This document shows, piece by piece, positions 5,501 to 37,429 of a stretch of DNA of 64,000 nucleotides. The notes under the pieces are model-generated. The model had not been told where the DNA came from. It did not search any database and saw only the letters and a program-made list of their open reading frames with translations. The position numbers were made by a program, and so were the translations under genes. Position 1 is the stretch's first letter; the number at the start of each line of letters is the position of its first letter. Source of the stretch: Escherichia phage CMSTMSU; the sequence record MH494197.1; one strand, written 5' to 3'.

Positions 5501-5690
5501 GGAACAGCCTCACTTTGCCTAACTCGTCATTGGATATTAATTCGTTAACAGCTTTTTGTATATTCTTTAATAATAGCACATCAAATCCTTTTGTGTCAAG
5601 CACACATTGCATTTGGAAGAATTCTTCTTCTGATAATGTATTAAAATCCACAAAATTGTCTAATATTACGTCATTATCCAAATGTGCCAT
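5481..5690 (-). CDS. hypothetical protein, FQ-motif family
   Basis: TLSEEEFFQMQCVLD; close paralog of 5818..6129. Confidence 0.55.
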   Translation of the reverse strand: MAHLDNDVILDNFVDFNTLSEEEFFQMQCVLDTKGFDVLLLKNIQKAVNELISNDELGKVRLFHDLEVQ

Positions 5691-5817
5691 GTGCCATGTA
5701 TTTCTTTCGAGCGTTTAATAAAATTCCATCCATCTGGATAATCGGGTTCTAATTCTACATATATCCCCGATACTGTATAAAGCATTTTATATATCATAAC
5801 TATTGTACTCATTGTTT

Positions 5818-6129
5818 TCACTGTACGTCGATGTCATAATACGCTCCTACCTCATAATCTTTCTTGCTTTGGAATTCATTAACGACTTTCTGTATATTTC
5901 TTAATGTTACCATGTCATGTCCGTACATGTCAACCACCAATTGCATTTGGAAAAATTCTTCTTCAGATAATGTATTAAAATCTATAAAATAATCCGTAAC
6001 AACCTGTGCGTCTAAATTTGCCATGTACCATTGATTGGTATCGACCTCTTTAACCAAATTCCATGCATCTGGATCGGATTCTAATTCTACATATATTAAT
6101 GTTAATGTATAAAGCATTTTATACTTCAT
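5818..6129 (-). CDS. hypothetical protein, FQ-motif family (starts MKYKMLY)
   Basis: TLSEEEFFQMQLVVD; part of a duplicated two-gene cassette. Confidence 0.55.
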   Translation of the reverse strand: MKYKMLYTLTLIYVELESDPDAWNLVKEVDTNQWYMANLDAQVVTDYFIDFNTLSEEEFFQMQLVVDMYGHDMVTLRNIQKVVNEFQSKKDYEVGAYYDIDVQ

Positions 6130-6463
6130 AACTATATCCTTGCATTAATAAATCATAAACGTTTGAAAGGTGCGGAATTTTGATATAAAATTTAAAACCC
6201 TTAATTAAAGGATTCGCGTACAATGAACTGAATAACTTTAGATAATGTATTTGACGAGGACTGTATAATAACGATTTCTGAAATAATTCAGCACTACAAT
6301 CTGAACTAATATCAATTAAATCAATTCGTGCTTCTACTTCATCATCTTGTTTCAAAACATAAAAGAAATAATCGTTTGTGTTGACCCACAAATACCCTTC
6401 ACTATTTTCGTATATAACAGGAGATGCTTGTTCTGGATTGCCTTGGCAAATGCTGCAAAACAA
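6119..6463 (-). CDS. hypothetical protein ending ...LLMQGYSYEV
   Basis: Paralog of 6700..7014 (identical C-terminus), SAELFQKSLLY motif. Confidence 0.5.
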   Translation of the reverse strand: MFCSICQGNPEQASPVIYENSEGYLWVNTNDYFFYVLKQDDEVEARIDLIDISSDCSAELFQKSLLYSPRQIHYLKLFSSLYANPLIKGFKFYIKIPHLSNVYDLLMQGYSYEV

Positions 6464-6699
6464 ACTTTTGCATTACTTTCATCTTTAAACATAAACGATA
6501 ATTTATCATATCTATCTTCTATGCGTAAATCACCTATAAAATGTACTTATGCATAGAATGATTATTCTTGAGCATAAGCATTACTGTACTAATCTTGTGT
6601 GCTAATAATTCTATCTCATTCATATATTATTACCTATTGATTGATACATCGTCATTGTCTTCTAATTCAACATAAATCATATCTTTTGTATAAAGCATT

Positions 6700-7014
6700 T
6701 TATACTTCATAACTATATCCTTGCATTAAAAGATCATAAGCAATATCAACTAATTCTAAACGAATGAAAAATTTTAAATTATCTTTCAATGGATTCAAAT
6801 GCATTGTACTAAACAACATAAGATACTTCATTTGATTTGTATTGTATATTAGGGATGTCTGGAATACTTCTGCTTCATTGTAAGGATCAATGAATTTTAT
6901 ACCTTCTTCACTGTAATCCGTTTTGGAATTCTGATATATAAAATAATCATCACCAGCATTGTACCACAAATAACCTTCAAAACTGGAATCAAATTCTGAA
7001 TTTTCATTTCGCAT
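6700..7014 (-). CDS. hypothetical protein ending ...LLMQGYSYEV
   Basis: Paralog of 6119..6463; followed by a truncated MKYKMLYT copy. Confidence 0.5.
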   Translation of the reverse strand: MRNENSEFDSSFEGYLWYNAGDDYFIYQNSKTDYSEEGIKFIDPYNEAEVFQTSLIYNTNQMKYLMLFSTMHLNPLKDNLKFFIRLELVDIAYDLLMQGYSYEV

Positions 7015-7259
7015 TAAAGGTGATACTGAAATTGGATTTGAACCAACTGTTGCACAAACCTCAATGAAAGCATCTTCATTTCCTTAACTTCTTCTTTGAT
7101 TTTATCATTGTACTGACCTGCAAAACCAGCTTTCACTTCCAAATATAAACTACTCCCAACTTTATTAATTCTTAAAAGGGAACTCTGTACTGTATTCGCA
7201 TTGTTCAGCACTAACGATATTGTGCAAATCTTATGTACCAATAACTCAATATCATTCAT
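7014..7259 (-). CDS. hypothetical protein
   Basis: Track ORF. Confidence 0.4.
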   Translation of the reverse strand: MNDIELLVHKICTISLVLNNANTVQSSLLRINKVGSSLYLEVKAGFAGQYNDKIKEEVKEMKMLSLRFVQQLVQIQFQYHL

Positions 7260-7270
7260 ATTGGTATTCC

Positions 7271-7486
7271 TTAATTTGGTGGATTTGGATGTAATAACTG
7301 ATCTATATAATTTAAATGTTCTATTGTAACTAATGAAAGATAATAATTGTAATTATCTATACCACCCTTTAAATGTATATTGTAATACATCTTGATACTT
7401 ACTAATAAAGAATCATTTAAATCATTTATTGCTTTTGTATTAACGGTTTTCATTAATGTTCTTCTCTTAAAAACGCTTAATGGCAC
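7271..7486 (-). CDS. hypothetical protein
   Basis: Track ORF. Confidence 0.4.
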   Translation of the reverse strand: MPLSVFKRRTLMKTVNTKAINDLNDSLLVSIKMYYNIHLKGGIDNYNYYLSLVTIEHLNYIDQLLHPNPPN

Positions 7487-7626
7487 AATCTAAATAAAAA
7501 TCATAATACATCATATCTCTATTCTTAACCCATACACAATAATCTGCATTAATATTTCTTAATAATATATTCATATTATAATCTTCACACCCTAATCGTG
7601 CCATTTAATAGGATACTCCGTTCCAT

Positions 7627-7839
7627 TTATTGTATAAGATATAATCCATCCGTAATGAATAGGATGATTTTTGTCTGAATCAGGAATAAAATATAAAGAT
7701 GTACTGGGTTATAACTGAATAAATCGTTGTTACCAATTGTAAAATGTGATAACTCAATCTTCCTTGTACCTGTACTTGGACGAAGAACATTCTTAACACC
7801 GAAGACTGTACCTTGATATTTCTCGGAAAATTCAAACAA
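7627..7839 (-). CDS. hypothetical protein
   Basis: Track ORF. Confidence 0.35.
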   Translation of the reverse strand: MFEFSEKYQGTVFGVKNVLRPSTGTRKIELSHFTIGNNDLFSYNPVHLYILFLIQTKIILFITDGLYLIQ

Positions 7840-7964
7840 TGCATCTGCAATTAAATCACGAAACTCCGCATGTATGGTTTCAAAAAATCTATATTACACG
7901 ATGTTTTAATATCCTTGAACTCCTTATATAAAGAGCTTCTTGTATTCAAAAGAAATATTACTTT

Positions 7965-8165
7965 TTAAGATCCTGAACTATTTCTGGATTCATATTCATT
8001 TATCTCATTCTGTAACTTAAGCATCAAAATTTGCATATTAATTTTTTGTACAAGGTGATTGAGAAATTTCTGTACTGTATCTTCTTGTTCTTTTGACCCA
8101 AGATAAAATAACATATTAAATTCCGATAACCTCAGAGCAAAATCTTCCTCTCCCCTCGTAAACAA
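7965..8165 (-). CDS. hypothetical protein, LGT-motif family
   Basis: LFYLGSKEQEDTVQKF resembles the LGTNYQE core. Confidence 0.45.
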   Translation of the reverse strand: MFTRGEEDFALRLSEFNMLFYLGSKEQEDTVQKFLNHLVQKINMQILMLKLQNEINEYESRNSSGS

Positions 8166-8199
8166 AAATCCCTGTACTTTGAAGCGTACAAATATTGGT

Positions 8200-8412
8200 T
8201 TACCTTTTTATACCTTTGGGTCTGCATTGTATCTCCTTTTTCAAACACCTTATTAGATTATCAACGTATTGGTCCTGTACTATTGTCCCTAGATAAAATA
8301 ATACATCGAACTCTGATAATTTTATATTGAAAGGATCTACATATACATCTTTAATAAACTCTTTGTACTTCAAAATATATGCATTAGGTAAATTCTTATA
8401 TATCGATTTCAA
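8200..8412 (-). CDS. hypothetical protein, LGT-motif family
   Basis: LFYLGTIVQDQYVDNLI. Confidence 0.45.
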   Translation of the reverse strand: MKSIYKNLPNAYILKYKEFIKDVYVDPFNIKLSEFDVLFYLGTIVQDQYVDNLIRCLKKEIQCRPKGIKR

Positions 8413-8626
8413 TGATCCTCCCTGACATACCTTGTATTAGCTTATCATACATATCTAGCATTACTTTTTGAATACTAATTAATACTGGCATCGTGCAAAT
8501 ATCAATGTCGTATATTAAGCTGTACTGGAATAATTCCTCTTCCTGCATTTGTACTAAATTAGGTAAAAGATAATTGTCTGCCTCTTCATCCGGTACTTGA
8601 ATGCATAACGCCATCCTTTTGTACAA
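8396..8626 (-). CDS. hypothetical protein, FQ-motif family
   Basis: EEELFQYSLIYD. Confidence 0.5.
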   Translation of the reverse strand: MYKRMALCIQVPDEEADNYLLPNLVQMQEEELFQYSLIYDIDICTMPVLISIQKVMLDMYDKLIQGMSGRIIEIDI

Positions 8627-8712
8627 AAGAATGTCAATATCACCTAACTCTTCTGCATAACCAAAAATACATATACTGATGTTTTTGCTATATTAAATTT
8701 CATATTCTTCTC

Positions 8713-9063
8713 TTATATGTGGAATTCACATACGTGTTGAACAAAATTCTTTGGAAGATGACAATGTGTAATCATCTGCTTTTGTACTTCCTTCATATCT
8801 TCGAATGTAAATCCTAAAGAATCATCATGTACTAACAAGTACTGAAACTCTTCTTCTTCAGAGATAGAACATAAATTCGGTACTGAAATTGTGTTTGTTT
8901 TTCTTGCACCTAATTTCCAATGAAAAGAATTATTGCATTTTCTGTACTCAAATATCTTCAACCCAGAACCTGTATTAAAATCAGCTACTACAATGTAACA
9001 TGAATTCTTACGTACAATACAATTGAACTTACGCATTATCTCCACCTCTCTCCGTCTGTACAA
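8713..9063 (-). CDS. hypothetical protein, FQ-motif family
   Basis: SISEEEEFQYLLVHDD. Confidence 0.5.
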   Translation of the reverse strand: MYRRREVEIMRKFNCIVRKNSCYIVVADFNTGSGLKIFEYRKCNNSFHWKLGARKTNTISVPNLCSISEEEEFQYLLVHDDSLGFTFEDMKEVQKQMITHCHLPKNFVQHVCEFHI

Positions 9064-9340
9064 GAGTACTGGTACGTTGTAGTTAGGGTAGGGACCATGT
9101 TTGTAATGGGCATATTATTAACAATAACGGTAACAGGCATAAGAATCGTCTCTTCTCTACTCTGTCCTGTCCTTGTGCAATTCATCTTTTGCATTTCATC
9201 GGACTCCATGAAATACAATACAAATGGTGCAATCCCAAGAACAATACACAAGACGATAAGGAAATTTAAAAATTCAACATAATTTTCTACCCTATGATTA
9301 ACGTACAGGTACTATATCAGTAATGAAAAGTACTGTCAAG

Positions 9341-9715
9341 CTAGTATTGCACTGTTCTAATGAAAGTACCTTTACTCATGGATTTAAGCTTATGAACCTC
9401 TTCCTGCATACCCTTAATTAACCCTAAAGGTATAGGTAAATCATGTACTAAGCTGTACTGAAAGTATTCTTCTTCAGATAAAGTACTAACATCTGGAATG
9501 CCAATTTTAGTTAGATAATCTTGATGTGTTGACCAATAAATTATATCTTCAGTACTATTGTACTCCCCATATACTGAACAATATTGATGAATATCTTTCC
9601 TGTACCCTTGAGCAATAAAGAACTTATCTACTGCATTACCAGCATTAATAGAATTCACTTCGATTGTCACAGTACTTGAGCTTGTTTTTCCTTTACTATG
9701 CATATTAATCCCCAA
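9341..9715 (-). CDS. hypothetical protein, FQ-motif family
   Basis: STLSEEEYFQYSLVHD. Confidence 0.5.
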   Translation of the reverse strand: MGINMHSKGKTSSSTVTIEVNSINAGNAVDKFFIAQGYRKDIHQYCSVYGEYNSTEDIIYWSTHQDYLTKIGIPDVSTLSEEEYFQYSLVHDLPIPLGLIKGMQEEVHKLKSMSKGTFIRTVQY

Positions 9716-9891
9716 ATTAGATATCGAACACTATCAGCTTGATAGTTAGTTCCTACTGTGTGTTTTAATATTAACTCATCTTTCAGTACTGAACATTCTG
9801 CATTAGATATAGGAAGAGAATTAATTCTTTGAATTTCTGGTCGCAAAATACCGCGAAGCTTGCGGTAATCTTCGTATGATAATATTTTCAT
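9667..9891 (-). CDS. hypothetical protein
   Basis: Track ORF. Confidence 0.4.
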   Translation of the reverse strand: MKILSYEDYRKLRGILRPEIQRINSLPISNAECSVLKDELILKHTVGTNYQADSVRYLIWGLICIVKEKQAQVL

Positions 9892-10238
9892 TGTTTAGTA
9901 CTCAATAATGTGTTCTTCATAATCACCATTAGGCTCTGTTTAGCTTCTTTCATTAGTACTATCATTTTATGTACTAATGGCATAGGAAATTCTAAATCCC
10001 ATACTAATGATTCTTGAAAGTATTCCTCTGGTGATAAAGTACTTAAATCTTTAATATCAACGTGCTTGTATATTTTATTTTCGTAATTAACAAATGATAT
10101 ATATAAATCATTAATATAAGAATCATACGTAATTGTGAATGGCTTACCCTTGTAGTCCATTACATCTCTACATAGACTACTTTTGATATATATATGTTCA
10201 TAGGATTTATATACCTTGAGTTGTATATTAGTTTTCAT
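9888..10238 (-). CDS. hypothetical protein, FQ-motif family
   Basis: STLSPEEYFQESLVWD. Confidence 0.5.
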   Translation of the reverse strand: MKTNIQLKVYKSYEHIYIKSSLCRDVMDYKGKPFTITYDSYINDLYISFVNYENKIYKHVDIKDLSTLSPEEYFQESLVWDLEFPMPLVHKMIVLMKEAKQSLMVIMKNTLLSTKQ

Positions 10239-10503
10239 ATTTCTCTTTATTAGATTGTGTGGTTTTATAGTGAATGAAATCTATTAATGTAATCAAGTAC
10301 AACGTCAAATAGTACTCTTGTTGATCTGTACCTAATGATACAAAGAACTTGTGCTCATAGATTAAAACCTGTTTCTCTTCAAATGGACATTTAATCCTCT
10401 GTATAGGCTTAAGTAAATGATAGTACTTATTAAATCTATGATACATTTCTAGTTCTGTCAGTACTTTCATATTAAACACGTACTCCATTAGCTGTAGCAT
10501 CAC
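10228..10503 (-). CDS. hypothetical protein, LGT-motif family
   Basis: LGTDQQEYYLTLYL. Confidence 0.45.
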   Translation of the reverse strand: MMLQLMEYVFNMKVLTELEMYHRFNKYYHLLKPIQRIKCPFEEKQVLIYEHKFFVSLGTDQQEYYLTLYLITLIDFIHYKTTQSNKEKYEN

Positions 10504-10693
10504 GTAAAGCTGTCAAATACTTCTGTACTGCTTGCTCTTGCTTATTTGTACCTAAAAGTATATACATCCATAATTCACTGTAATGTACATCTTCTGTATA
10601 AGGGTTGTTGTAACTTTTTGATAATATAGCATCAAATTCAGATGCATGAACCCTTGTGAACTTAAGAATATCTTGTTGTGTTATGATTCTCAT
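10472..10693 (-). CDS. hypothetical protein, LGT-motif family
   Basis: LLGTNKQEQAVQKYL. Confidence 0.45.
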   Translation of the reverse strand: MRIITQQDILKFTRVHASEFDAILSKSYNNPYTEDVHYSELWMYILLGTNKQEQAVQKYLTALRDATANGVRV

Positions 10694-10899
10694 ATTTTTC
10701 CTGTACTATCTGTATAAGAATACCTATGTGTGAATTAACAGTTCTCTCTTGATGCTGTGTTCCTAAGAGTGTCAGTACTATCATATCTGAACGCAAAAGA
10801 TTTTTTCAAGTTCACTTATATCAGTTCTTGAATCAAGTGCCATATATTTGTGATTATTCTTCCTGAATAGTGCCAAGTACTCTTGATTTGATATTTCCT

Positions 10900-11430
10900 T
10901 CATAGTTTATCCCTGATGCCATTTAAAAGTGCTCTAATATGTTCCTGTACGAATTTGTACTGACTGTCTGTTCCTAGAGTGAGTAGCAATCTTAAATCTG
11001 AACTTTTGATGTGATATTCTAAATCATTATTTGATTCTTGCATCAGTTTCTTAAAGGATGAGAAGTTTGCAGCCATTAGTTCAATGTATTCTGCTGTTCC
11101 TAGTGGTTTGTGTATTGGCTGTTTGTGCATTTTAATTTTATTACCCTTTGAGTGTATTAATGTAATTATACACATTGGCTTTTGATAGTTAGTTCCCAGT
11201 GTAGCTTGAACATAGATTTCATTTAACTTAATAATTTTATCAGTATCTGGTAGTTTTGATGTGTTAATGGCAAATAACTTCAAAACAGTCCATTTAAGAT
11301 TGTTAGGTATTCTTCGTCGGTAATGATTCGCATTTGCATTGGATAAACCTTTTAGTTCTTTGATGTAATCATTAATATTGCATTCTTGATAGTTAGTCCC
11401 TAGGGTAGCTTGAACATAGATTTCACTCAT
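10900..11430 (-). CDS. hypothetical protein with three LGT modules (fusion or read-through of tandem paralogs)
   Basis: ATLGTNYQ occurs twice plus LTLGTDSQYKFVQEHI. Confidence 0.4.
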   Translation of the reverse strand: MSEIYVQATLGTNYQECNINDYIKELKGLSNANANHYRRRIPNNLKWTVLKLFAINTSKLPDTDKIIKLNEIYVQATLGTNYQKPMCIITLIHSKGNKIKMHKQPIHKPLGTAEYIELMAANFSSFKKLMQESNNDLEYHIKSSDLRLLLTLGTDSQYKFVQEHIRALLNGIRDKL

Positions 11431-11533
11431 TAGAATATTTTTTCTTCATCAGGTAAATCTGTGGTCTTTGCTATATACAATTTTAGAATTAAACTACTTA
11501 ATAGTTCGTGGTATTCACTTGGTGAAAGGATTT

Positions 11534-11749
11534 TCATTTGCATGTTCTCAGTACAGATTCTTTAAGTTCATCGATGTAGTCCTCAACGAATTGCTCTTGG
11601 AAGTTAGTTCCAACATATAAAAGAACTCTTAAATCTGCTCTAAGTAACTCTTTTTCATCCTCATCTATATCAGACAATGTTATGTTTAAGAATTTACTTG
11701 TATTAAAGATTAACAATTCTGTTTGTTCACTGTGGTTTAAAATTTTCAT
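11534..11749 (-). CDS. hypothetical protein, LGT-motif family
   Basis: LLYVGTNFQEQFVEDYI. Confidence 0.5.
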   Translation of the reverse strand: MKILNHSEQTELLIFNTSKFLNITLSDIDEDEKELLRADLRVLLYVGTNFQEQFVEDYIDELKESVLRTCK

Positions 11750-11957
11750 AATCTCTTTTTGCTTTCCTCGACAGTAGGTACAAATACGATTCTTCGTATT
11801 GTGCTTGGAAGTTTGTGTTTAAGAGTCGAAACAACTTCTGTTCTTCTAGAACGAGTTGCTTATCTTCATAACAACGGTAGCGTATCAACTTTTTGTATTC
11901 GATGTTGATTACATCCATTACTATAAGCCCATGTTCATCATCTGTCAAGTGCTTCAT
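11727..11957 (-). CDS. hypothetical protein, LGT-motif family (variant)
   Basis: LLNTNFQAQYEESYL. Confidence 0.45.
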   Translation of the reverse strand: MKHLTDDEHGLIVMDVINIEYKKLIRYRCYEDKQLVLEEQKLFRLLNTNFQAQYEESYLYLLSRKAKRDYENFKPQ

Positions 11958-12162
11958 GCTTTTTTCTTTTCCTGATGTGTTTAGTTAAAAGGTATATTAG
12001 TTTTCTGATGTATTCTTCCTGATAGTTTGTTCCTAGGAGTGCAAGAAGTTTTGCTTCAACTAAAGCTAATTGACGTTCTTCGAATGTGTGTTCCAGTATG
12101 TACTTTGGGTTTGATTTTTAGATATTGCACTATTAGTTTTCATTACAATCTTATGATATTCA

Positions 12163-12420
12163 TTAACTGTTAGGATTTTTAAATTCTTGAGCATGTACCT
12201 TTTCCTTTATAGAGAATTTAAGATATCGAAGCATACTTTCAATGTAATACTCTTGTCTGTCAGTTCCAAGAAAGTACAGGAGTTGAATGTATAAAACTTC
12301 TGCACTCCTTTCGGCATGTGACTTGTTTGTGTCGTTTGGAAGTTGATTTGTAAGTTTTCTGGATTTAATTAATCGTTCTTTTAACTCATCGTCTGTTAAG
12401 TATATCATTTCATTTTGCAT
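12163..12420 (-). CDS. hypothetical protein, LGT-motif family
   Basis: FLGTDRQEYYIESML; N-terminus MQNEMIYLTDDEL shared with 12457..12645. Confidence 0.5.
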   Translation of the reverse strand: MQNEMIYLTDDELKERLIKSRKLTNQLPNDTNKSHAERSAEVLYIQLLYFLGTDRQEYYIESMLRYLKFSIKEKVHAQEFKNPNS

Positions 12421-12456
12421 TTACTTTTTCCATAATAGTAATTTTGAGATATTTAA

Positions 12457-12645
12457 TTATACGTTCAATGTGATACTTTGCCTATCAGTTCCAAGAAGGT
12501 ATGGTAATGACTGGAATAAAACTTCTGCACTCCTTTCTGCTGGGGTTTGGTTTGGGTCATTTGGAAGTTTATTTGTAAGTCTTTTGGATTTATCTAGTCT
12601 TTCTGTTAACTCATCATGTGTTAAGTATATCATTTCATTTTGCAT
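12457..12645 (-). CDS. hypothetical protein, LGT-motif family (C-terminus probably frame-disrupted)
   Basis: Near-identical N-terminus to 12163..12420, ends prematurely after LGTDRQ. Confidence 0.45.
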   Translation of the reverse strand: MQNEMIYLTHDELTERLDKSKRLTNKLPNDPNQTPAERSAEVLFQSLPYLLGTDRQSITLNV

Positions 12646-12881
12646 TTAATGTTCCTTACGTAAATTGTCTGGATTAAAAGTGAAATCCATTTTTCTACAT
12701 ATTGGTTTTGATACTGTGTGCCTAAAAGACTCTGCATTTTAAACTCTTCTTCGAGTGCATATCTCGTTTCTATAGTAAAGCTTAAATGACCATATTCTTT
12801 ATCGTATCTTCTCAGTGCTTCCCCAATTCTATCAAATCTTTCTGCTATTCTGATGTTATTAATTTTATTCATCGCATTCAT
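12630..12881 (-). CDS. hypothetical protein, LGT-motif family
   Basis: LLGTQYQNQYVEKWI. Confidence 0.5.
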   Translation of the reverse strand: MNAMNKINNIRIAERFDRIGEALRRYDKEYGHLSFTIETRYALEEEFKMQSLLGTQYQNQYVEKWISLLIQTIYVRNIKCKMK

Positions 12882-12966
12882 CGATCAGTACACCTTAGTG
12901 GACGGGTCATTTGATAAAAGTACAGCTTACCTTTGATTTCCAATAGTAACTCAGCAATTAATCGAT

Positions 12967-13155
12967 TTACTTCTGGCTCTTGATAGTTTGTCCTAACAAT
13001 GCACCCATCTTTAACTCACGCATCATAATCATTTTCTTACTGTGTTGAATTTCTGGGTTGTGATAGATTGTATTACGTTTGTGTGTAATTTTTGTCATAC
13101 GCTCGGTATATTCATCTTTACTTAAATTGATCATTTGCATGTTCATCAACCTCAC
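12967..13155 (-). CDS. hypothetical protein, LGT-motif family (variant)
   Basis: N-terminus MQMINLSK shared with 13563..13811. Confidence 0.45.
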   Translation of the reverse strand: MRLMNMQMINLSKDEYTERMTKITHKRNTIYHNPEIQHSKKMIMMRELKMGALLGQTIKSQK

Positions 13156-13562
13156 ATTTATTTTCGATACAAATCATTAGTTCTCTAAGATAGTTTTTAT
13201 CTTACCTTCCTGATGGTTCGTCCCGAAAGTTGCATAACTCTGCTTCTATCATTTTGATTCTTCTGGTGTCAGGTTTCAATCTTTTGTTATTGAAGATTTG
13301 AATCCTTATATCCCTTGATGCATTTAAACGTTTTGATATTCATGGAAAGATAAATTAATCATTTACTTTGTATCTCTCTCTTGAGGGCATCAATTAACAA
13401 CAGTACAGCATTCTCTTGATAGTTTGTTCCTAAGACTGAAAGCATCTTAATCTCATTTACTACGATCAACTTCTTTGAGCGTTCAATAATGTTACTATTA
13501 TAAACGGCGTTACGTGCTGGATAAGTTTTGCAAGACGATCATAATATTCATCTTTACTTAAA

Positions 13563-13811
13563 TTAATCATTTGCATTTCTCGTACATTTACTTAGTTTAC
13601 TCCCAATGTATTTCTTAAGTGTAATTATATATTCCTCTACATAATACTCCTGATAGTTAGTTCCTAAGAATGCACATAGCTTTGTCTCACGCTTCATAAT
13701 CATCTTATTTTCGTGTTTGTTTACTTCACCGAAATGGATTTCATTAAGTTTAGGTAAGATTTTTGCTTGGCGTTCTTTATATTCAGATTTACTTAAATTA
13801 ATCATTTGCAT
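13563..13811 (-). CDS. hypothetical protein, LGT-motif family
   Basis: FLGTNYQEYYVEEYI. Confidence 0.5.
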   Translation of the reverse strand: MQMINLSKSEYKERQAKILPKLNEIHFGEVNKHENKMIMKRETKLCAFLGTNYQEYYVEEYIITLKKYIGSKLSKCTRNAND

Positions 13812-14014
13812 TTACTTTGGATCTCCTTGACTAATGCATCAACCCACATGTCTATATACATTTGTTGATAGTTTGTCCCTATGAGTGCCCTGCATAGAGT
13901 TCAGCTATCATTGCATGTTTTAGGTTGGCAGGATGCTCTTATCAGATTGAATCTTTACTCTTCTGTTGGCACATGTTTTCAGGAGTCTGATGTATTCAAA
14001 GCCTTGTAATTTTC

Positions 14015-14230
14015 TCATTCTTTAGATATCACCTTGTTACGTAAGGCACTTAACAATACGTCAGTGTAGATGTTTTGATAGTTTGTTCCTACGAAAGCAC
14101 CCAACTTCATTTCAGCTATTATAACACATTTGTCCTCTTGTGCAATAGACTTGTCTAAAGAAATACTAACAACTTTCCTTCTTATAGCTTGTAATCTCCA
14201 ATGATACTGATACTCATTTAGGGTTATCAT
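14015..14230 (-). CDS. hypothetical protein, LGT-motif family
   Basis: FVGTNYQNIYTDVLL. Confidence 0.5.
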   Translation of the reverse strand: MITLNEYQYHWRLQAIRRKVVSISLDKSIAQEDKCVIIAEMKLGAFVGTNYQNIYTDVLLSALRNKVISKE

Positions 14231-14465
14231 TCTCTCGCCTCCATATCTCGGTTCTAATGTGTTGACATTGTGCTTCGATGAACATATCTATTGATTTGGC
14301 AATTGCGTTTTTATCTGTGCCAGTCATCAGTACAAGCATCTCGGCCTCACAGTGAAGTAAACGCATGATATCATAGGGTAATATTCCAGATACCGTGTCA
14401 TAGTGTTTCTGTGCCAGTGTCTGTAATAGTTTACAATACATTTTGTGATTTAGTCTGTGTCGCAT
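14214..14465 (-). CDS. hypothetical protein, LGT-motif family (variant)
   Basis: LMTGTDKNAIAKSIDMFIE. Confidence 0.45.
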   Translation of the reverse strand: MRHRLNHKMYCKLLQTLAQKHYDTVSGILPYDIMRLLHCEAEMLVLMTGTDKNAIAKSIDMFIEAQCQHIRTEIWRRENDNPK

Positions 14466-15587
14466 TGTTTATTCCATTCTTTTTGGCCCTCTGGGTTTTA
14501 TATTGGATTTGGTTTCTTAATGCTGATAAGTATCGTTGAATGAACAGATCTTGATAGTTTGTTCCAATGAATTTCATAAGATAAAGTTCACCGTTGATAA
14601 CATCCACTTCAGGTGCACCATATAAGGCATTGTTTTTCTAAGGGCATGGATTAAAGAGAATAGGGCAGTTTGATACTCAACTCCTGATAAAGTCTTCATG
14701 TTTTGTGAGCCAATAATCATCTAGTTTATCCTGTATAACATTCATTAATTGTTCGACATATTCTGTGCAAAACTTATCTTGATATTGAGTCCCATAAAGT
14801 ACAGCAACCATAGCTCATTAACTTTAGCTCGCATTTGGTTCCATGTAAGGCTGGGGTCATCGTAGACTATCCTTGCTATAGGGTTAGTTTACGGACTATA
14901 GTTTCATATTCATCTAGTGTTAAGTGTTTCATTTACATTTGTCCCTTATTAGATCAGTGAGGGCAACTATGTGTGCAACAACATACTCTTCCTGAAAGTT
15001 CGTCCCAGTACAGCCATCATGCGTATATCGGTGGTGTTTATCCTGTGTTCCCTTACACATAAACCTTCTGTGTGAGGAAGTGTAAAATATTTGTTTATTG
15101 CAGCAATGATAATTTTATTCTTCTCGGAATTACTTAAATGTTTCATAGTTTGCTCTTAATGTATTTCTGGAGTGCAATTATATACTCATTCAAGAAGTGC
15201 TCTGATAATCTGTGCCGAGGAATGCACCCAATAGTATATCATTTTCCAATACTAATGCTAAGTTCAAATCATCAGTCTCTTCATATACTATGAGAATTTC
15301 AAGTTGTCTGGCAGCGACGCGTTCGGTATATTGATTTGAGTTTGCAATGATATTCATAGTTTACTCTTTATGTAATTCTTGAGTGCAATTAAGTATTCCC
15401 CTACATAATACTCCTGAAAGTCTGTATCCAAAAATGCACCCATAAGTAAATCTTTTTCTAATACCCTTGATAAGTTAAGGTCTGCATTTGAAAGGTATAT
15501 AAGTAAGATTTCACCCTGTGCGGAATTGAAACGTTTCTTATATTCTTCTGGTGTTAAAAAATCATAGTTTACTCTTAATATCTTCTA

Positions 15588-15770
15588 TTAAAAATGAATC
15601 CAATCGTCAACATACTCTTCCTGATGGTTTGTGTTCAGTACAGCCAACATGCGGATCTCTGCTCTTGCAACTTGGATTTCAGTTTTAGAAAGGTCTTTGC
15701 TGATATCAAACATTAAGTCCATGTATTTCAAGATAAGACCGAATGATTGGGTTCGTGTTATAGTTTTCAT
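15588..15770 (-). CDS. hypothetical protein, LGT-motif family
   Basis: VLNTNHQEEYVDDWI. Confidence 0.45.
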   Translation of the reverse strand: MKTITRTQSFGLILKYMDLMFDISKDLSKTEIQVARAEIRMLAVLNTNHQEEYVDDWIHF

Positions 15771-15967
15771 TGTTTCCTCGTGGACAATATTTCATTTTTC
15801 AATGCATCCATATATTGAATCACCCATCTTCCCTGATAGCTTGTTCCCAATGTAATCAAAAGGTATAACTCAATTCGTTCTAAGTTTGTGTCTGTGTTAT
15901 AAATCTTTACCATGTTTTTACGTAACAGTTCTTGATAATCTTCTTTATTTAAAATACGCATTTTCAT
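15767..15967 (-). CDS. hypothetical protein, LGT-motif family
   Basis: TLGTSYQGRWVIQYM; 4-nt overlaps with neighbours. Confidence 0.5.
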   Translation of the reverse strand: MKMRILNKEDYQELLRKNMVKIYNTDTNLERIELYLLITLGTSYQGRWVIQYMDALKNEILSTRKQ

Positions 15968-16161
15968 AGTCTACCTTTTATGTCCCTTCGTAATTCTTGT
16001 AAGTATAGTTCGATATACTTTTCTTGATAGTTAGTTCCTATGAAAAGTTTCATAACCAATTCACGCTTATATGCAATACCACGGATATGTGACATATGTA
16101 GGATATATGCCATGTTGGATATGAGTGTGTGGTTGTGCTCTTCTTCAGTTAAAATACGCAT
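15964..16161 (-). CDS. hypothetical protein, LGT-motif family
   Basis: FIGTNYQEKYIELYL. Confidence 0.5.
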   Translation of the reverse strand: MRILTEEEHNHTLISNMAYILHMSHIRGIAYKRELVMKLFIGTNYQEKYIELYLQELRRDIKGRL

Positions 16162-16205
16162 AGGGACTCCATTAAAAATAATATCAATCCCATAATATAC
16201 GATTC

Positions 16206-16380
16206 ATATAAAAGTCAATAACATTTTATTCGTAATACCCTTTATCGAAGTCGCTAAGGTTACCCGCCCTTTAGCCCCTACGCATTTTGCCATAGTCCAA
16301 TCCTTTTATTCATAAAAGTCAAGGGATTACCTATGCATTTTTTAACGCTGAAGTTTAAAAATGCCTTGACTTTTTATGAT
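16206..16380. repeat. TCATAAAAGTCAA repeats (two direct, one inverted) in ORF-free region
   Basis: Copies at about 16206 and 16312 (direct) and 16365 (inverted TTGACTTTTTATGA). Confidence 0.45.
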
Positions 16381-16877
16381 TCAGTACTAAATCCTTTTAC
16401 GCATTAATCCTTCGTTACGCTTACGATTATCTGTGTATCCCCATAGTCCTGCCATACTTCCACGCCAGCCGTCGCCCGGTTAGTCGTGCTGTCATCTGCT
16501 TAATGGTCTTAGGCTTTAGTGGAACCTGTTGCAGTACTGTACGCATAGTATCATCGACGTTATCGTGTACGCCTGCAATAGTGCCTAGGACGCTGTATAC
16601 GTGTATAGAACATATGTATGCCCTCCTGATATAGTTAAGGCCGCTACAAGGCGGCCTATGATGTTTGGTGATGTGTAACGCTTACAGTCCTAAGATAGTG
16701 CGTGCTTCGTTACGTTCCGTGCACAGCTGCATGATGTGAGCAAGTAAGTCCTTGCTAATGTATCCGGTGTTCATAGCTTCACGAATAGATACATCATAAG
16801 CACCGAACCCGTGCGAACGATACGCACATCATTCAGGTTAGTATTATAGATACCGCCGAGATCAACGGCTTCGAATA

Positions 16878-17498
16878 CTACATCAACAGAATATTCATTG
16901 TTGCCATCGTGGAAGTTTTCCAGTGCAATAGTATTGGATACCGCCCAACGTTTGCAGTTTCAATGATGCGGCACTGTTCCGGTTGGATAGTGCCATTACT
17001 TACAGCGTACTCCAGTGCATCTTTACCAAAAGTCCGAGCCAGTACTAAAACGTCAGCGAAGGAAGTGATTGAGAAGGTCATGATAAAACTCCTTAATTTA
17101 GGAGGGAGAACCATTTCCTCTCTATGTAAAACATTATACATGAATCTAAGTACTATGCAAGTACTTTTACATTTTAATACCGGATTCAGGTAGCGGTGAG
17201 ATCCATATTCTGGATCGGTTTCGGTCCAGTACTGTAAATCGATAGTACCTTTCGCGTTAATCTTGTCTACCAGCTTATTCATCTTAGCGTATACTACGTC
17301 AGCATCGATGCGTTTAAAGCCAGTAGCTTTAGTGAAGTAGTAGTGATTTGCTTCACTATCATTAAGGATATACCGAGCACCGTTTGCCGTTTGTGCGATA
17401 ATGATTGAGTATTCTACGTTACGGTCGAGGCCGTCGATGAATACAGAGGAAACATTAGTACGGATGAAAGCTTTAACGATAGCGATTGAAGTAGTCAT
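16878..17498 (-). CDS. composite ORF: probably two frame-disrupted genes read through an embedded promoter/stem-loop cassette
   Basis: Conserved intergenic cassette (…ggagggagaaccatttcctctctatgtaaaacattatac…) lies inside the ORF at about 17090-17170. Confidence 0.3.
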   Translation of the reverse strand: MTTSIAIVKAFIRTNVSSVFIDGLDRNVEYSIIIAQTANGARYILNDSEANHYYFTKATGFKRIDADVVYAKMNKLVDKINAKGTIDLQYWTETDPEYGSHRYLNPVLKCKSTCIVLRFMYNVLHREEMVLPPKLRSFIMTFSITSFADVLVLARTFGKDALEYAVSNGTIQPEQCRIIETANVGRYPILLHWKTSTMATMNILLM

Positions 17499-18022
17499 TT
17501 TGAATCTCCTAACTTTGTGGGCCGTCGCACCATTGCCGCCCTACGAGATACATTATTGCAGTACTGATATACTTTGTCAATACTTTTTATTAATAGTTTT
17601 AGTTCCACCAGCAGATAGTTACTCACCGTTATTAACTATATATTTTGGATACACCTATGCACCCTGTGGGCTAGTTTTTGTCTATGCGTATATATAGCAG
17701 GACTGACCGAGTCAATCCCTTTTTATTCTTTTTGTTAGATGATTCTCCAATCATCAACGATCATGGTAAGATACCGAACCAGTGATTCGAGTGATTCGTG
17801 TTCTCGATAGTCTGCCGCTCCACCAGCGGTACAAGTACAGCCGATTAAGCCGTTTTGTAGTTCCGGATCTTTACGTCGATCTGGTTGGCTTTAGCTTCTT
17901 TCAGTACTTCAACCGGGCGAGAGCGATAGACATAATGTTTTACTCCAAACTATTGGCGGGAGAACTATTCCCCGCTCTATGTAAAACATTATACATTACT
18001 GGTTAGTACTGTCAAATAGTTT

Positions 18023-18280
18023 TTATGAAATATCTTCGATGTAGTCGGCCCATTTCATTTTTTCAGTACTGTCAATGGCTACCGGATTATTTGGATCAAA
18101 CCATTCACCATTACCGCAGTACATACCCACGGCTACGGTTTTATAGCCATCCCGGGCCGCACACCACGACATTGCACGATAGATATGGCCTTTAACTGGT
18201 TGCAGTACTGGTAACGTTTTATGGTCTTCTACGTAGGCCATAGCTTGTGGATTTACCCGATATTGTGTGAACTGTTCCAT
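18023..18280 (-). CDS. hypothetical protein (85 aa)
   Basis: Track ORF; TTGACA-N17 promoter-like motif just upstream at about 18300-18350. Confidence 0.5.
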   Translation of the reverse strand: MEQFTQYRVNPQAMAYVEDHKTLPVLQPVKGHIYRAMSWCAARDGYKTVAVGMYCGNGEWFDPNNPVAIDSTEKMKWADYIEDIS

Positions 18281-18716
18281 TATGTTTCCCCTTGTAGTTA
18301 GTAAAGTTATTACATCAGTACTATCAAGCTATGTCAATAGTACTGAAATAAAACTTTTAGATTAGATTATTGAGGCCGTCAATGGTAGACTCACTTTCTT
18401 CTTTCTCCCATTGTCGGTAGTACTTCCATGCTTCATGATAGGTGGCGATCAGTTCATCTTTTGATCCGGTTACATGCCAGTACTGAATCACGGTGAGCGG
18501 TGTTATAGATAGAATCGAATGATTTCTTCTCTTCTGCCGTTAGCTACTTCCCGCATCAGTTCATCAAAGTTAGCCATTTTATTACTCCTTTTAGTGGGGA
18601 GGATATCTCCCTATGCAAAACATTATACTTTGTTTTAGTTATTATGCAAGTACTTTTTCATATAAACATTAAATTCTACACCGCCGTAACCTTCCACGAT
18701 GATATGTTTTGCGTTA

Positions 18717-18902
18717 TCACGTTTGCACATAGTGAAACCATCGTTTACGTGTTTTGCATTTTCGGGCGACATCACCGATAGCGGCACATACGGCACTAAT
18801 AACAGTATTCCGCAAAGTACTGGTATCATTGGCGGTCATAGTAGTTTGCAGTACTACGTTGTCGTATACGTGTGCATTGATAGTGATTTCGATAGTGTTC
18901 AT
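18717..18902 (-). CDS. hypothetical protein
   Basis: Track ORF immediately downstream of a promoter cassette; overlapping frame 18635..18829 suggests a frameshift. Confidence 0.4.
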   Translation of the reverse strand: MNTIEITINAHVYDNVVLQTTMTANDTSTLRNTVISAVCAAIGDVARKCKTRKRWFHYVQT

Positions 18903-19233
18903 GGTGTATCTCGACTGGCGGGAGAACTATTCCCCGCTCTATGTAAAACATTATACGTTAATCTAACTACAATGCAAGTACTTTTAAATTTTATTTCCGA
19001 TATAGTCCGGTCTATTCTTTTCGGTCATACGCTTTGCTAATGTTTGCATATGGCTTATTGCTTGTAGTGTATCCTCTTCCGGGATGAATCGAGATAATCA
19101 GGATCATTCTTCACCTTGCAATGATTATGATAGCGTAGTACTGCCAGTACTTTTTAACTTCTTCTACTGTCATAATAAGTACCCACTTCGTTAGCTTTCA
19201 GGTTAGTATCAATCATCAGTGGATTTTTGTAGT

Positions 19234-19440
19234 TCACAAAACGAGTAGTTTTCTCGATAGCGAATCCCATATAATCCAGCTTACTAACAGTACATTCATT
19301 CTTAAAACTTCTTTCGCTGCATCGATGGCTGATTGCATGGATAACCGACCATCTAAATTAATGTTTCCAAATGATCCACCAGCAGAAGTAGGATTACCGT
19401 TCATATCTTTAATGATCATAGTAGCGGAGTAGCTGGACAT
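19234..19440 (-). CDS. hypothetical protein (C-terminus probably frame-disrupted)
   Basis: Starts right after cassette at about 19455-19530. Confidence 0.4.
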   Translation of the reverse strand: MSSYSATMIIKDMNGNPTSAGGSFGNINLDGRLSMQSAIDAAKEVLRMNVLLVSWIIWDSLSRKLLVL

Positions 19441-19454
19441 AATTTTGTTTCCTT

Positions 19455-19530
19455 TTATTGGTGTGGGAGAACTATTCTCCCTTGATGTAAACTATTATAC
19501 AGTACTGATATACTTTGTCAAATACTTTTA
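19455..19530 (-). promoter_or_regulatory. promoter + stem-loop cassette (copy)
   Basis: ttgacaaagtatatcagtactgtataatagtttacatcaaGGGAGAAtagTTCTCCC on the minus strand. Confidence 0.55.
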
Positions 19531-19621
19531 TTCGCCCATATAGATTAGATTATCATCGCCTACATAGGATCGCAAACGTTGATTTCTTCGCAGTACTTCG
19601 TGAATACATCGCCATAGTGAC

Positions 19622-19858
19622 CTAAACCACGATCCCAAAACCAGTTCCGTGACCTTCGCGGGTAAGGAACAGATCATGACCAGCTTGCTCATAACCGTAA
19701 TCAATAAACATACCGCGAACTACTTCCAGATCATTACCGTGTTTCTCAATGAAGCGAGAACATGCAATCACTGCCGCTTGATGGGCTTGCTCTGATAATT
19801 CATAATCTTCCGTAATCGCCGTTCTCATTGTGTACAGTACTGAATTGCATAGCTTCAA
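19622..19858 (-). CDS. hypothetical protein (fragment of a longer frame-disrupted gene, about 19560..19935)
   Basis: An upstream ATG with MSTTTNLARN… and a downstream extension …GFWDRGLGHYGD lie in other frames. Confidence 0.45.
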   Translation of the reverse strand: MKLCNSVLYTMRTAITEDYELSEQAHQAAVIACSRFIEKHGNDLEVVRGMFIDYGYEQAGHDLFLTREGHGTGFGIVV

Positions 19859-20339
19859 TGTAAGCTACAACCATTGCAGCATGATTTTTATCGTTAGTGA
19901 TGTTCCGAGCGAGATTAGTAGTAGTAGACATGATTTTATTCCTTTTAGTATCGGGGAGAACTATTCTCCCTTGATGTAAACTATTATACAGTACTAATAT
20001 ACTTTGTCAATACTTAATTACGTTTAAAATGATATGTGCCTTTATCATCCTGTACGCCCCATACTGATTTACCATCAACACCAGTGAAGCCGGATTGTAA
20101 TTCAATATGGAAACCATTATTATCAACTACAAAAACTTTTTATTTTCATCCCGATAACATTGATATTCTGAATCAACATTAAAGGCCGCATCATTCAGAA
20201 GATTAGAAGCGTAAATGCAAGTCATTGTAGTCATGATTTTATTCCTTATTGCCGTGGAACCGTTCCTCTCGATATAAAACATTATACTTGATTCTAAGTA
20301 TAATGCAAGTACTTTTTAAAATAGTTTTCAGTACTGAAT

Positions 20340-20440
20340 ACTTATATAATAGATACACTTCCGCACCCTATGGGTCAGTGAGTTATCTCTCAATGGATAT
20401 ATATAGCAAAGGACTGACCGAGTCAATCCCTTTTTAATCT
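20340..20440. repeat. ~90-bp repeated intergenic element (core GCACCCTATGGG…ending in hairpin + T-run)
   Basis: Near-identical copies at about 17642-17730, 23585-23665, 28068-28165; partial copies at 25866, 34322 and inverted at 32715. Confidence 0.55.
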
Positions 20441-20507
20441 TTTTATCGTGTTACCTTACTTGCTGCCACATCACGCTTTTTATAGTACTGATTCCAGATA
20501 TTGCTGG

Positions 20508-37410: not shown

Positions 37411-37429
37411 CTCAATACTGATCACTACA

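Follow-up and report, generated by a model that had tools for sequence, protein, structure and literature searches.

A 64,000-nucleotide stretch of the Escherichia phage CMSTMSU record MH494197.1 (hereafter the window) carries 27 consecutive head-to-tail genes of a single protein family on its minus strand, at 10228..16161 and with transcription running from 16161 to 10228. The best explanation, and in our judgment a probable one, is that this paralogous tandem operon encodes an early, co-expressed repertoire of mini-proteins that bind host or defence proteins. By its best DNA matches, all to Asteriusvirus phages, the window derives from a jumbo coliphage of that genus (PBECO4/121Q-type). All 27 genes belong to PHROG 4148, a family of unknown function, and the six members tested matched its 74-position profile end to end (E 1e-14 to 4e-25). 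The PHROG entry describes the same family without function, structure, or genomic context; its tandem-operon architecture, fold, and orthology structure are described here.

Extent and Membership of the Array

Units were delimited by mapping the window onto the intact array of the relative fEgEco12, which raised the earlier estimate of about 25 copies to 27, with a unit period of 198–264 nt; 12 units are intact as sequenced, and deletions of 1–2 nt interrupt the other 15. At the promoter end, unit 1 (15964..16161; core motif FIGTNYQE, 65 aa) and unit 2 (15767..15967; TLGTSYQG, 66 aa) are intact, and a 1-nt deletion breaks the frame in each of units 3 (15562..15770; VLNTNHQE), 4 (15354..15565; FLDTDFQV, as in the relative), 5 (15143..15357; FLGTDYQ), and 6 (14929..15146; VLGTNFQE). 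Two 1-nt deletions are found in unit 7 (14677..14932; FMGTQYQD), unit 8 (14450..14720, start coordinate approximate; FIGTNYQD), and unit 11 (13802..14018; LIGTNYQQ), which surround the intact unit 9 (14214..14465; MTGTDKNA, 83 aa), by alignment the most divergent member, and unit 10 (14015..14230; FVGTNYQN, 71 aa). The protein used for modeling comes from the intact unit 12 (13563..13811; FLGTNYQE, 82 aa). Unit 13 (13359..13570; VLGTNYQE) is broken by a 1-nt deletion, unit 14 (13118..13362; FLGTNHQE) by deletions summing to 4 nt, and unit 15 (12878..13140; FLGTNYQE) by a 1-nt deletion within the motif codons. Intact unit 16 (12630..12881; LLGTQYQN, 83 aa) is followed by unit 17 (12410..12633; LLGTDRQE), with a frame-breaking 1-nt deletion, by intact unit 18 (12163..12420; FLGTDRQE, 85 aa), and by unit 19 (11954..12194; LLGTNYQE), with two 1-nt deletions. 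Units 20 (11727..11957; LLNTNFQA, 76 aa) and 21 (11534..11749; YVGTNFQE, 71 aa) are intact, the former with a conserved promoter-like consensus match (TTGACA-N17-TATAGT, 11948–11920, minus strand). Unit 22 (11303..11537; TLGTNYQE) has two 1-nt deletions, and unit 23 (11100..11339; TLGTNYQ) has three plus a 9-nt in-frame difference. Unit 24 (10900..11130; TLGTDSQY, 76 aa) is in frame, unit 25 (10690..10903; LLGTQHQE) has two 1-nt deletions, and units 26 (10472..10693; LLGTNKQE, 73 aa) and 27 (10228..10479; SLGTDQQE, about 83 aa) are intact. Unit 27, the final contiguous one, overlaps the following gene, a member of a different family.

A hidden Markov model (HMM) built from the members also located the array and matched minus-strand fragments only, spanning 7965 to 16203; a search of the whole 64 kb gave no other match at E<0.01 outside that span. 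Three further members lie outside the array on the same strand. The earlier note had listed the two at 7965..8412 and overlooked the third, an intact 74-aa gene (TVGTNYQA, 9667..9891) amid genes of the second family. Of the two listed, that at 8200..8412 (YLGTIVQD, 70 aa) represents a divergent subfamily and matches the family profile solely over the part from helix 2 through the motif to helix 3; its neighbor at 7965..8215 (YLG(S/T)KEQE) belongs to the same subfamily and has a 1-nt deletion.

Frame Breaks and Sequencing Errors

The earlier note described copies that appear frame-broken, and the breaks are indeed present in the record. They consist of 1–2-nt deletions, mostly in homopolymer runs, and every array copy checked in the accurately sequenced fEgEco12 and vB_Ec-M-J is intact. 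Against two relatives, the array has lost single bases at about 25 places and gained none. Over 18 kb within and outside the array there are 79 deletions and 2 insertions, and at positions 45–50 kb of the window 16 and 1; the deletion excess is also seen against three further contigs. The 40:1 bias reaches noncoding DNA, terminal-repeat genes, and virion genes of ~380 aa located 30 kb away. The CMSTMSU sequence is a MinION/Albacore/Canu draft (PMC6256653). Because the bias is window-wide and the relatives' copies are intact, we read the breaks as artifacts of the record: judged by sequence comparison, the 15 broken copies reflect homopolymer-type deletion errors in a long-read assembly that was left unpolished, and have no biological meaning. 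The absence of an intact ORF from 15 of 27 units in the window as given would also suit a decaying array with many pseudogenes, which we regard as very improbable given the size and homopolymer context of the breaks, their absence from the relatives compared, the reach of the bias beyond the array, the probable MinION source, and purifying selection on the orthologs.

Conservation at the Protein Level

The proposal that the units form a paralogous protein family was borne out by synonymous variation in one frame and by an ortholog dN/dS of 0.37–0.39 (pooled; orthologs collinear). Aligned over their full length, the paralogs need almost no gaps; T never varies, and Q and L hardly do. The termini had been called divergent; this holds for the C-terminal tails, to which the differences are limited, but not for the N terminus, which has the conserved pattern M-x-x-L-x-x-x-E-Y.

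A DNA repeat read in mixed frames had been named as the finding that would overturn the protein reading; it could be, for example, an array of binding sites or recombination signals with incidental ORFs. The 16-nt motif CTTGATAGTTTGTYCC does recur at the unit period, with 13 occurrences at ≤2 mismatches on a single strand from 9738 to 16038 (0.05 expected from shuffles), and the motif's Asn and Tyr codons are fixed as AAC TAT. Against this, Tandem Repeats Finder detected no array, most unit pairs have no detectable DNA similarity beyond the motif, and the frame is always the same, while synonymous codons replace one another at Gly, Thr, Leu, Gln, and Glu (all four Gly codons, six Leu, three Thr, and two Gln at conserved positions). 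With dN/dS below 1, full-length protein homology, a confident predicted fold, and distant arrays that retain the amino acids G-T-x-x-Q without the DNA motif, we give a DNA-level origin almost no credence. Still, the motif Asn is AAC in 17 of 17 copies, whereas AAC accounts for about 40% of Asn codons in the rest of these genes, and within Asteriusvirus N, Y, and E are conserved beyond the strict needs of a helix-capping box; for these two reasons the motif may also be under an RNA- or DNA-level constraint or form a shared binding patch.

Predicted Fold

Structure prediction, a check that had been suggested, gave a confident AlphaFold model for unit 12 (pLDDT 93.9), a three-helix bundle with helices at residues 8–27, 33–47, and 54–80 and an N-terminal residue bridged to the LGT segment. 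In the model helix 3 is N-capped by the invariant G-T-x-x-Q, and therefore the motif appears structural: by this prediction, the LGTNYQE core marks the fold and is no active site. The products are soluble, hydrophilic throughout, and about 8–10 kDa, with pI from 4.4 to 10.0 and charge from −7 to +10. Sequence and structure searches found no characterized relative by sequence or fold.

Evolution of the Paralogs

Across five phages the genes fall into 30 orthogroups, of which 14 are strictly 1:1. Members of one orthogroup share 82% identity and members of different orthogroups about 20%; array paralogs are about 27–37% identical and the closest ≤62%, and 16 paralog-specific positions are conserved among orthologs. 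On these comparisons the paralogs are old and retained under purifying selection, without recent amplification. The suggestion of rapid evolution is apt by comparison with the neighboring terminal-repeat genes (dN 0.174 vs. 0.024) but not overall, as selection is purifying and the 1:1 orthogroups are ancient.

Phages carry between 22 and 31 copies, and single units appear dispensable. fEgEco12 has an extra 215-nt unit between units 6 and 7 that is absent from the window and vB_Ec-M-J; the indel is unit-precise, with its breakpoint in the junction aaATGAAA, and recombination at this 8-nt stop/start junction would add or remove single units. Tandem copies number 23 in phage A4, 31 in PBECO4, 30 in phAPEC6, and 15 per contig in two metagenomic relatives; Klebsiella phage KP13-7 (Alcyoneusvirus) has about nine scattered ones. 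The family and its tandem arrangement thus recur in other RaK2-clade jumbo phages as here, but outside Asteriusvirus the motif is reduced to G-T-x-x-Q and unit-by-unit orthology is mostly lost.

Operon Layout and Timing

In relatives, neighboring genes overlap at every one of the 27 junctions, at 15 in the form ATGA, leaving no intergenic space, and most gene starts have a Shine–Dalgarno-like sequence; in the window, GGAG (16167..16170, minus strand) lies 5 nt ahead of the unit 1 ATG. The array promoter, called by consensus match, comprises TTGACT (−35, 16213..16218) and TATTAT (−10, 16192..16197) on the minus strand. fEgEco12 and vB_Ec-M-J share the conserved form TTGACT-N16-TATTAT, and PBECO4 and phAPEC6 have variant −10 hexamers; in the window, a 1-nt deletion at 16209 has shortened the spacer to 15 nt. 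In a generic scan, promoter-like sites were no more frequent across the window than expected; strict sigma70 matches in five relatives were split between the coding and the other strand as 10:0, 10:0, 16:0, 8:0, and 11:0. The next strong sigma70-type promoter (TTGACA-N17-TG-TATAGT, 9311..9339, minus strand), conserved in four relatives, sits where the first true intergenic gap opens downstream of the array and probably marks the end of the transcription unit begun at 16218. In the relatives the array genes make up the first 6 kb behind the promoter of a single polycistronic unit, as they would here.

The array promoter lies just outside the terminal repeat, about 40 bp from its inner boundary, which was mapped to 16257 from fEgEco12 position 20,993 and the vB_Ec-M-J repeat_region annotation; the window above 16257 corresponds to the repeat. 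The direct terminal repeat of fEgEco12 is 20,993 bp (PMC13070987), and its first array gene, at 21,091, starts about 100 bp past the boundary, with vB_Ec-M-J alike. Each terminal-repeat gene has a consensus sigma70 promoter, and in PA5oct, a distant clade member, terminal-repeat genes are early by RNA-seq (PMC7318152). The description of an early-type region is plausible from the upstream sigma70-type promoter, the adjacency to the terminal repeat, the absence of the products from virions, and the PA5oct analogy; host RNA polymerase would transcribe the operon early, and the encoded proteins would be made together.

Function of the Array Proteins

The virion evidence comes from phAPEC6, where gp467c–489c are missing from the 62 proteins detected by mass spectrometry, in which a 4.7-kDa protein was found. 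Small products, genes near the genome end, and the RCC1-like "DNA condensation" paralog families of this phage, which are virion components, could indicate internal or virion proteins packaged and injected with the DNA; given the proteome and a sigma70 promoter context that fits early rather than late genes, we consider this highly doubtful.

An unlikely alternative is that the paralogs are subunits of one early hetero-oligomeric scaffold, filament, or cage whose stoichiometry is fixed by coupling. The overlapping junctions imply coupled, roughly equimolar synthesis, and tight translational coupling would suit one complex too; helical bundles commonly pack together, and L-G-T-N-Y-Q-E forms a conserved patch across the family. 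An obligate complex is nevertheless hard to reconcile with a copy number that varies among close phages and with the precise loss of single units; the phAPEC6 virion has no array products, and a tethered tandem model scored a pTM of 0.49, its confidence under the monomer's, although this is a weak test limited to a homodimer. We similarly doubt that the proteins regulate the phage program by binding DNA or RNA polymerase as anti-sigma or appropriator factors. They are small, all-helical, and presumably early, lie beside a promoter-dense region, and include several basic members (pI 9–10); yet the top structural matches of the model are not helix-turn-helix domains, the helices are long (15–27 residues), the charge spread is wide, and it is implausible that one fold would supply about 30 distinct regulators.

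A repertoire of binders appears the most likely reading because the paralogs are old and retained, helices 1–2 of each bear residues that its orthologs conserve and other paralogs lack, and their pI values range so widely. The products would be made together early and act as nonenzymatic binders, each sequestering or modulating a different host or antiphage-defence protein during takeover.

Comparison with Known Systems

The genes SPO1 gp37–gp60, the T5 pre-early genes, and those of Twort-like terminal repeats form clusters of about 20–25 tiny early genes in phages with long terminal redundancy; they have host-sigma promoters, and their nonenzymatic proteins subvert host machinery. The likeness lies in dense tiny genes in or beside the redundancy. 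Those genes, however, are mostly mutually unrelated, are located within the repeat, and are often driven by promoters of their own, whereas the array consists of about 27 paralogs of a single fold outside the repeat, with one promoter and every junction overlapping; sequence and fold homology between the two is lacking. Among large eukaryotic DNA viruses, the ASFV families MGF110/360/505 and poxvirus terminal families are likewise same-orientation tandem paralogs near termini with isolate-variable copy number, located in an accessory, faster-evolving zone. The resemblance is in tandem paralogs of variable number by terminal repeats; the proteins are unrelated, the genes of those families are monocistronic and the array predicted to be polycistronic, the array has no recent "accordion" amplification, and experiments tie those families to host range and immune evasion, whereas a host link here is inferred. 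Comparison of sequence and structure revealed no detectable similarity between array proteins and small helical phage binders or anti-CRISPR proteins. T4 AsiA and antidefence and anti-CRISPR proteins are early, noncatalytic proteins of 60–90 aa that bind a host protein, and the array proteins resemble such "monkey-wrench" binders in size class, in having no catalytic motifs, and, presumably, in early expression; those are encoded by single genes or mixed loci, whereas the array represents a 30-member family.

Extent and Genomic Setting of the Array

The best DNA matches of the array region were Asteriusvirus (PBECO4/121Q-type) jumbo coliphages of ~350–380 kb, Escherichia phage fEgEco12 being 97% and vB_Ec-M-J ~94% identical. 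In these two phages, the counterparts are annotated as an unbroken one-strand run of genes for 65- to 87-aa "hypothetical proteins," and the run starts ~100 bp past the inner end of a ~21-kb direct terminal repeat. In fEgEco12, PhageTerm and restriction mapping confirmed a repeat length of 20,993 bp (PMC13070987), and the array opens with a gene at record position 21,091; in vB_Ec-M-J, the repeat covers 1–21,525, with the first array gene from 21,624. Coordinate mapping places the inner boundary of the repeat at window position 16257. The GC content is 0.31–0.35 in the array and steps to 0.41 beyond it.

The unit map was made by carrying 28 fEgEco12 genes over to the window via base-level alignment. 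This gave 27 units on the minus strand at 10228–16161, 12 intact and 15 interrupted, and corrects the count of an array that the earlier note, made from the sequence alone, had put at about 25 copies; one fEgEco12 unit has no counterpart in the window or in vB_Ec-M-J. The two further members noted at 7965–8215 and 8200–8412 were found again, and a third, at 9667–9891, had been overlooked. HMMs built from the members matched minus-strand fragments only, from 7965 to 16203, and the claimed recurrence of the DNA motif for the LGTNYQE core held, with 13 single-strand occurrences at ≤2 mismatches against 0.05 expected. The profile of PHROG 4148, labeled "unknown function," matched six of six members over profile positions 1–71 of 74 (E values from 1.2e-14 to 4.3e-25).

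Several neighboring features were observed. A second tandem paralog family lies directly downstream on the minus strand (8396–10238), interleaved with the outlying LGTNYQE members; its four copies of 76–124 aa share the invariant core E-x-F-Q-x-x-L-x-x-D ("LSEEEYFQYSLVHD"), with phrog_13866 as the top PHROG match, and an hhalign probability of 0.7% indicates that the two families are unrelated. Phage A4 (locus L005, 14001–14819) and a metagenomic relative (L004, 1269–2102) carry a 277-aa gene where the terminal-repeat-type genes give way to the array, and Klebsiella phage KP13-7 carries it in the equivalent place (L006, 13992–14813); the window and fEgEco12 do not have it. As its C-terminal part is weakly similar to "endonuclease" genes of other Asteriusviruses, the 277-aa gene is possibly a mobile insertion. 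The GC skew changes sign at ~37000–38000, where minus-strand genes give way to plus-strand genes, and by arithmetic this switch falls where the terminal repeat has its outer end, the physical end of the genome having been joined there in the assembly. No Rfam match was found in 7–19 kb of the window, and no tRNAs were found.

Conservation at the Protein Level

The 29 members align nearly gap-free at a mean identity of ~27%, and in the core T never varies and Q and L hardly do. The termini had been described as divergent, which is incorrect for the N terminus, where M-x-x-L-x-x-x-E-Y is conserved across the alignment. The conserved residues are encoded in a single frame by varying synonymous codons (all four for Gly; ACA, ACT, and ACG for Thr; six for Leu; CAA and CAG for Gln), and the orthologs of fEgEco12, vB_Ec-M-J, and A4 follow one another in the same order, their pooled dN/dS being 0.37–0.39. 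Alignment, synonymous variation, and dN/dS thus identify a real protein family and not a DNA-level repeat read in mixed frames. A tandem DNA repeat or satellite was rejected, as Tandem Repeats Finder reported no array of the unit period; the repeat search recovered only a motif of 16–50 nt and a few neighboring unit pairs at 69–73% DNA similarity.

Within the motif, two codons are nearly fixed. For Asn, the codon is AAC in all 17 copies of fEgEco12 and in 12 of the 13 of A4, compared with ~40% of the Asn codons in the remainder of these genes, and Tyr is always TAT (16/16), while the flanking Gly, Thr, and Gln codons are variable (e.g., window 13649–13664). Because the neighboring codons vary freely, this fixation does not reflect gene conversion; a possible cause is a constraint on translational accuracy or at the nucleic acid level.

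The named homologs were, without exception, hypothetical proteins from phages of the Asteriusvirus type or from E. coli assemblies that contain such phages, and when 1.84 billion cluster representatives were searched exhaustively with the profile, only 88 were found. KP13-7, an Alcyoneusvirus, has ~9 scattered members, and two metagenomic contigs have a 15-member array each. Pfam contained no family match: DUF7237 was hit by only one of the 29 members, with a best score of 14.3 bits (E 0.05; gathering threshold, 27 bits), a chance match. A 269-aa "fusion" member, P0082, covers two genes of the phage EC.P1 annotation and probably results from faulty gene calling. In the type species, PBECO4 (NC_027364.1, record 125.5–131.9 kb), RefSeq has 17 CDS for 29 consecutive HMM units, indicating that the array is underannotated and ~12 of the 29 units were missed.

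Frame Breaks Are Sequencing Errors

Some copies had been read as frame-broken. The breaks are present in the record but artifactual: compared with both fEgEco12 and vB_Ec-M-J, all prove to be short deletions, which with few exceptions remove a single base and lie mostly within runs of T4–7, A5–7, C3–5, or G3, and the array has no one-base insertion relative to those two phages. Across the 18 kb alignable to fEgEco12, measured at 4209–22430, we counted 79 one-base deletions and 2 insertions, the deletion density being 2.7–8.7 per kb and the array, the noncoding leader, and the terminal-repeat genes all being affected. Thirty kilobases away, at 45017–49899, the ratio of deletions to insertions is 16:1 against phage Turkey3 and genes of ~380 aa are broken, and the same bias was seen against three more independent contigs. 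NCBI lists a protein identical to unit 12 under phage CMSTMSU, on a 386-kb contig. The CMSTMSU genome is a MinION R9.4/Albacore/Canu draft for which no polishing step is described (PMC6256653), and given the window-wide excess of deletions, this unpolished draft is the probable source of the breaks. An array of pseudogenes was rejected on the same grounds, the breaks being window-wide, mostly homopolymer deletions and absent from the relatives compared. With roughly three to nine one-base deletions per kb against accurately sequenced relatives, ORF-based readings are unreliable anywhere in the window.

At ~42000–52000 on the plus strand, a further array of paralogs, with at least six consecutive RCC1-like genes of ~370–400 aa, is fragmented by one-base deletions of the same kind. 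Their counterparts in relatives are labeled "regulator of chromosome condensation" or "DNA condensation protein," and like-annotated phAPEC6 proteins are virion components (gp003–010, gp549–551).

Age, Selection, and Copy Number

The units of five genomes formed 30 orthogroups, of which 14 were strictly 1:1:1:1:1 and four more were present in four genomes. Identity is 82% inside orthogroups and ~20% between them, and the closest paralogs within a genome are at most 62% identical (median ~37%), which excludes a recently amplified "accordion." The unit by which fEgEco12 and the window differ corresponds to a precise indel of 215 nt that breaks within aaATGAAA, the 8-nt stop/start junction. Together, the orthogroups, the paralog divergence, and the precise indel indicate an old, stably inherited array with occasional unit-precise gain and loss. 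Sixteen positions, mainly in helices 1 and 2, are paralog specific but conserved among orthologs, and the exposed positions of helix 3 are the most variable inside orthogroups. The units of the metagenomic and Klebsiella lineages differ from those of Asteriusvirus roughly as much as paralogs do, a distance at which independent expansion beyond the genus and saturation look alike.

The family had been called rapidly evolving. This stands relative to the terminal-repeat genes: for the same genome pair, dN is 0.174 in the array and 0.024 in the adjacent repeat genes (whose dN/dS is 0.16). It does not stand for selection, which is purifying on net. Downstream of the array, the small genes resemble it (dN/dS 0.46), and with the contrast in dN, this points to a fast-evolving accessory zone that starts at the repeat boundary. 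The tandem family itself is real, ancient, and under purifying selection.

Operon Structure and Expression

None of the 27 junctions in fEgEco12 leaves a gap: 15 are ATGA overlaps, the others are overlaps of 8–40 nt, and an SD-like sequence precedes most starts. The first gene is preceded by TTGACT-N16-TATTAT and then GGAG-N5-ATG; the promoter-like element is kept in fEgEco12 and vB_Ec-M-J, and PBECO4 and phAPEC6 have variant −10 hexamers. The putative upstream σ70-type promoter of the window is at 16218–16192 (minus strand), its spacer shortened by a sequencing deletion. A generic promoter scan of the window, which gave no excess over shuffles, missed it for that reason. Strict matches to the σ70 consensus in five relatives were on the coding strand only: they are dense in the terminal repeat, at about one per small gene and often in the perfect form TTGACA-N16-TGTATAAT, and sparse in the 6-kb array, which has the upstream promoter and one conserved site within unit 20 (11727–11957, minus strand). 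The next match after the array, at 9339–9311 (minus strand), lies in the first real intergenic gap.

The repeat genes were seen to be organized in sharp contrast to the single-promoter array of overlapping genes. In the repeat-equivalent part of the window (16257–22430) and in loci L001, L002 (fEgEco12), L005 (A4), L007 (PBECO4), and L008, they stand 60–100 bp apart, and many have their own near-perfect σ70 promoter (TTGACA-N16-TGTATAAT), often inside a shared 28-mer, TTGACAAAGTATnTnAGTACTGTATAAT, on the coding strand only. At ~16290–16325 on the minus strand (12550–12585 in L002), a second copy of TTGACTTTTAT is enclosed by the arms of an 8-bp inverted repeat, AATCCCTT-N15-AAGGGATT; the element lies ~40–70 nt inside the mapped boundary of the terminal repeat and possibly marks a boundary or has a regulatory role.

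The literature on Asteriusvirus and RaK2/GAP32 paralogs, on transcriptomes, and on the PHROG identifier yielded no description of the array, no expression data, and no transcriptome for the genus; in PA5oct, a distant member of the clade, most terminal-repeat genes are early by RNA-seq. We infer with fair confidence that expression of the array is early, driven by the host RNA polymerase, and coupled. That the products are virion or internal proteins was rejected, as the phAPEC6 orthologs gp467c–489c are not among the 62 virion proteins of purified particles (Table 1, PMC7247149); the products are nonvirion.

Predicted Fold and Role of the Motif

AlphaFold2 with the paralog alignment gave a confident model of a three-helix bundle (pLDDT 93.9, pTM 0.78), with helices at 8–27, 33–47, and 54–80 and residue 4 bridged to residue 51. 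By the modeled helix boundaries, LGT forms a strand and loop before helix 3, with T as the N-cap and Q at N3 in a capping box. Distant arrays keep G-T-x-x-Q only, N and Y varying, and this retention, read on the model, assigns the motif a structural role. A profile search of PDB sequences found no relative, and Foldseek against the PDB found no informative one (E > 2); structure matches in BFVD were to the same family only. A helix-turn-helix DNA-binding domain was rejected, the model having no structural match to such folds.

Functional Interpretation

The proteins are hydrophilic, range in pI from 4.4 to 10.0, and contain no catalytic signatures. Together with the paralog-specific conserved surfaces, the diverse charges, the dispensability of units, and a position like that of takeover modules and terminal multigene families, this tentatively suggests that each paralog binds a different host or defense target. 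The main live rival is that the paralogs assemble into hetero-oligomers, which is favored by their translational coupling but disfavored by the variation in copy number; an AlphaFold model of a tethered dimer (pTM 0.49), a weak test, lent self-association no support. Binding of different targets has a more specific form, which we consider rather improbable: as a germline-encoded library, the array could supply ~30 diversified mini-binders on one minimal three-helix scaffold, which would be made together within minutes of infection. In one version, every member would neutralize a different host hub or antiphage defense protein; in another, the shared L-G-T-N-Y-Q-E patch would dock on one common host machine and helices 1 and 2 would recruit different targets.

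In jumbo phages, the majority of genes lack a known function (83% in phAPEC6), and here one ancient, individually conserved family accounts for ~5% of all genes in a phage of 350 kb, packed into a single, probably early, operon. The array is a natural experiment in the diversification of one minimal fold. If the proteins bind host or defense proteins, they are ~30 small soluble candidates for tests of antidefense, host takeover, and host range, from phages being considered for therapy of APEC, UPEC, and O157 strains. The sequences are already public and clustered as a PHROG; the literature covered contained no account of the array, of the fold, or of how the operon is built.

In position, the array resembles both takeover modules and terminal multigene families. 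Like takeover modules of the SPO1/T5 type, which lie in or beside the terminal redundancy, it is a cluster of small genes, in its case adjacent to the repeat and outside it. Like multigene families, it consists of many tandem paralogs in the same orientation beside a terminal repeat (27 units, ~100 bp off the boundary) and varies among isolates, from 22–23 copies in A4 to 31 in PBECO4 across six genomes. Either version of the library, if true, would give phages a parallel to the terminal multigene families that giant eukaryotic viruses carry, and the array would be rich in new antidefense proteins. Among early accessory clusters and viral multigene families, the array is unusual in that ~30 paralogs sharing one minimal fold are joined in one coupled operon.
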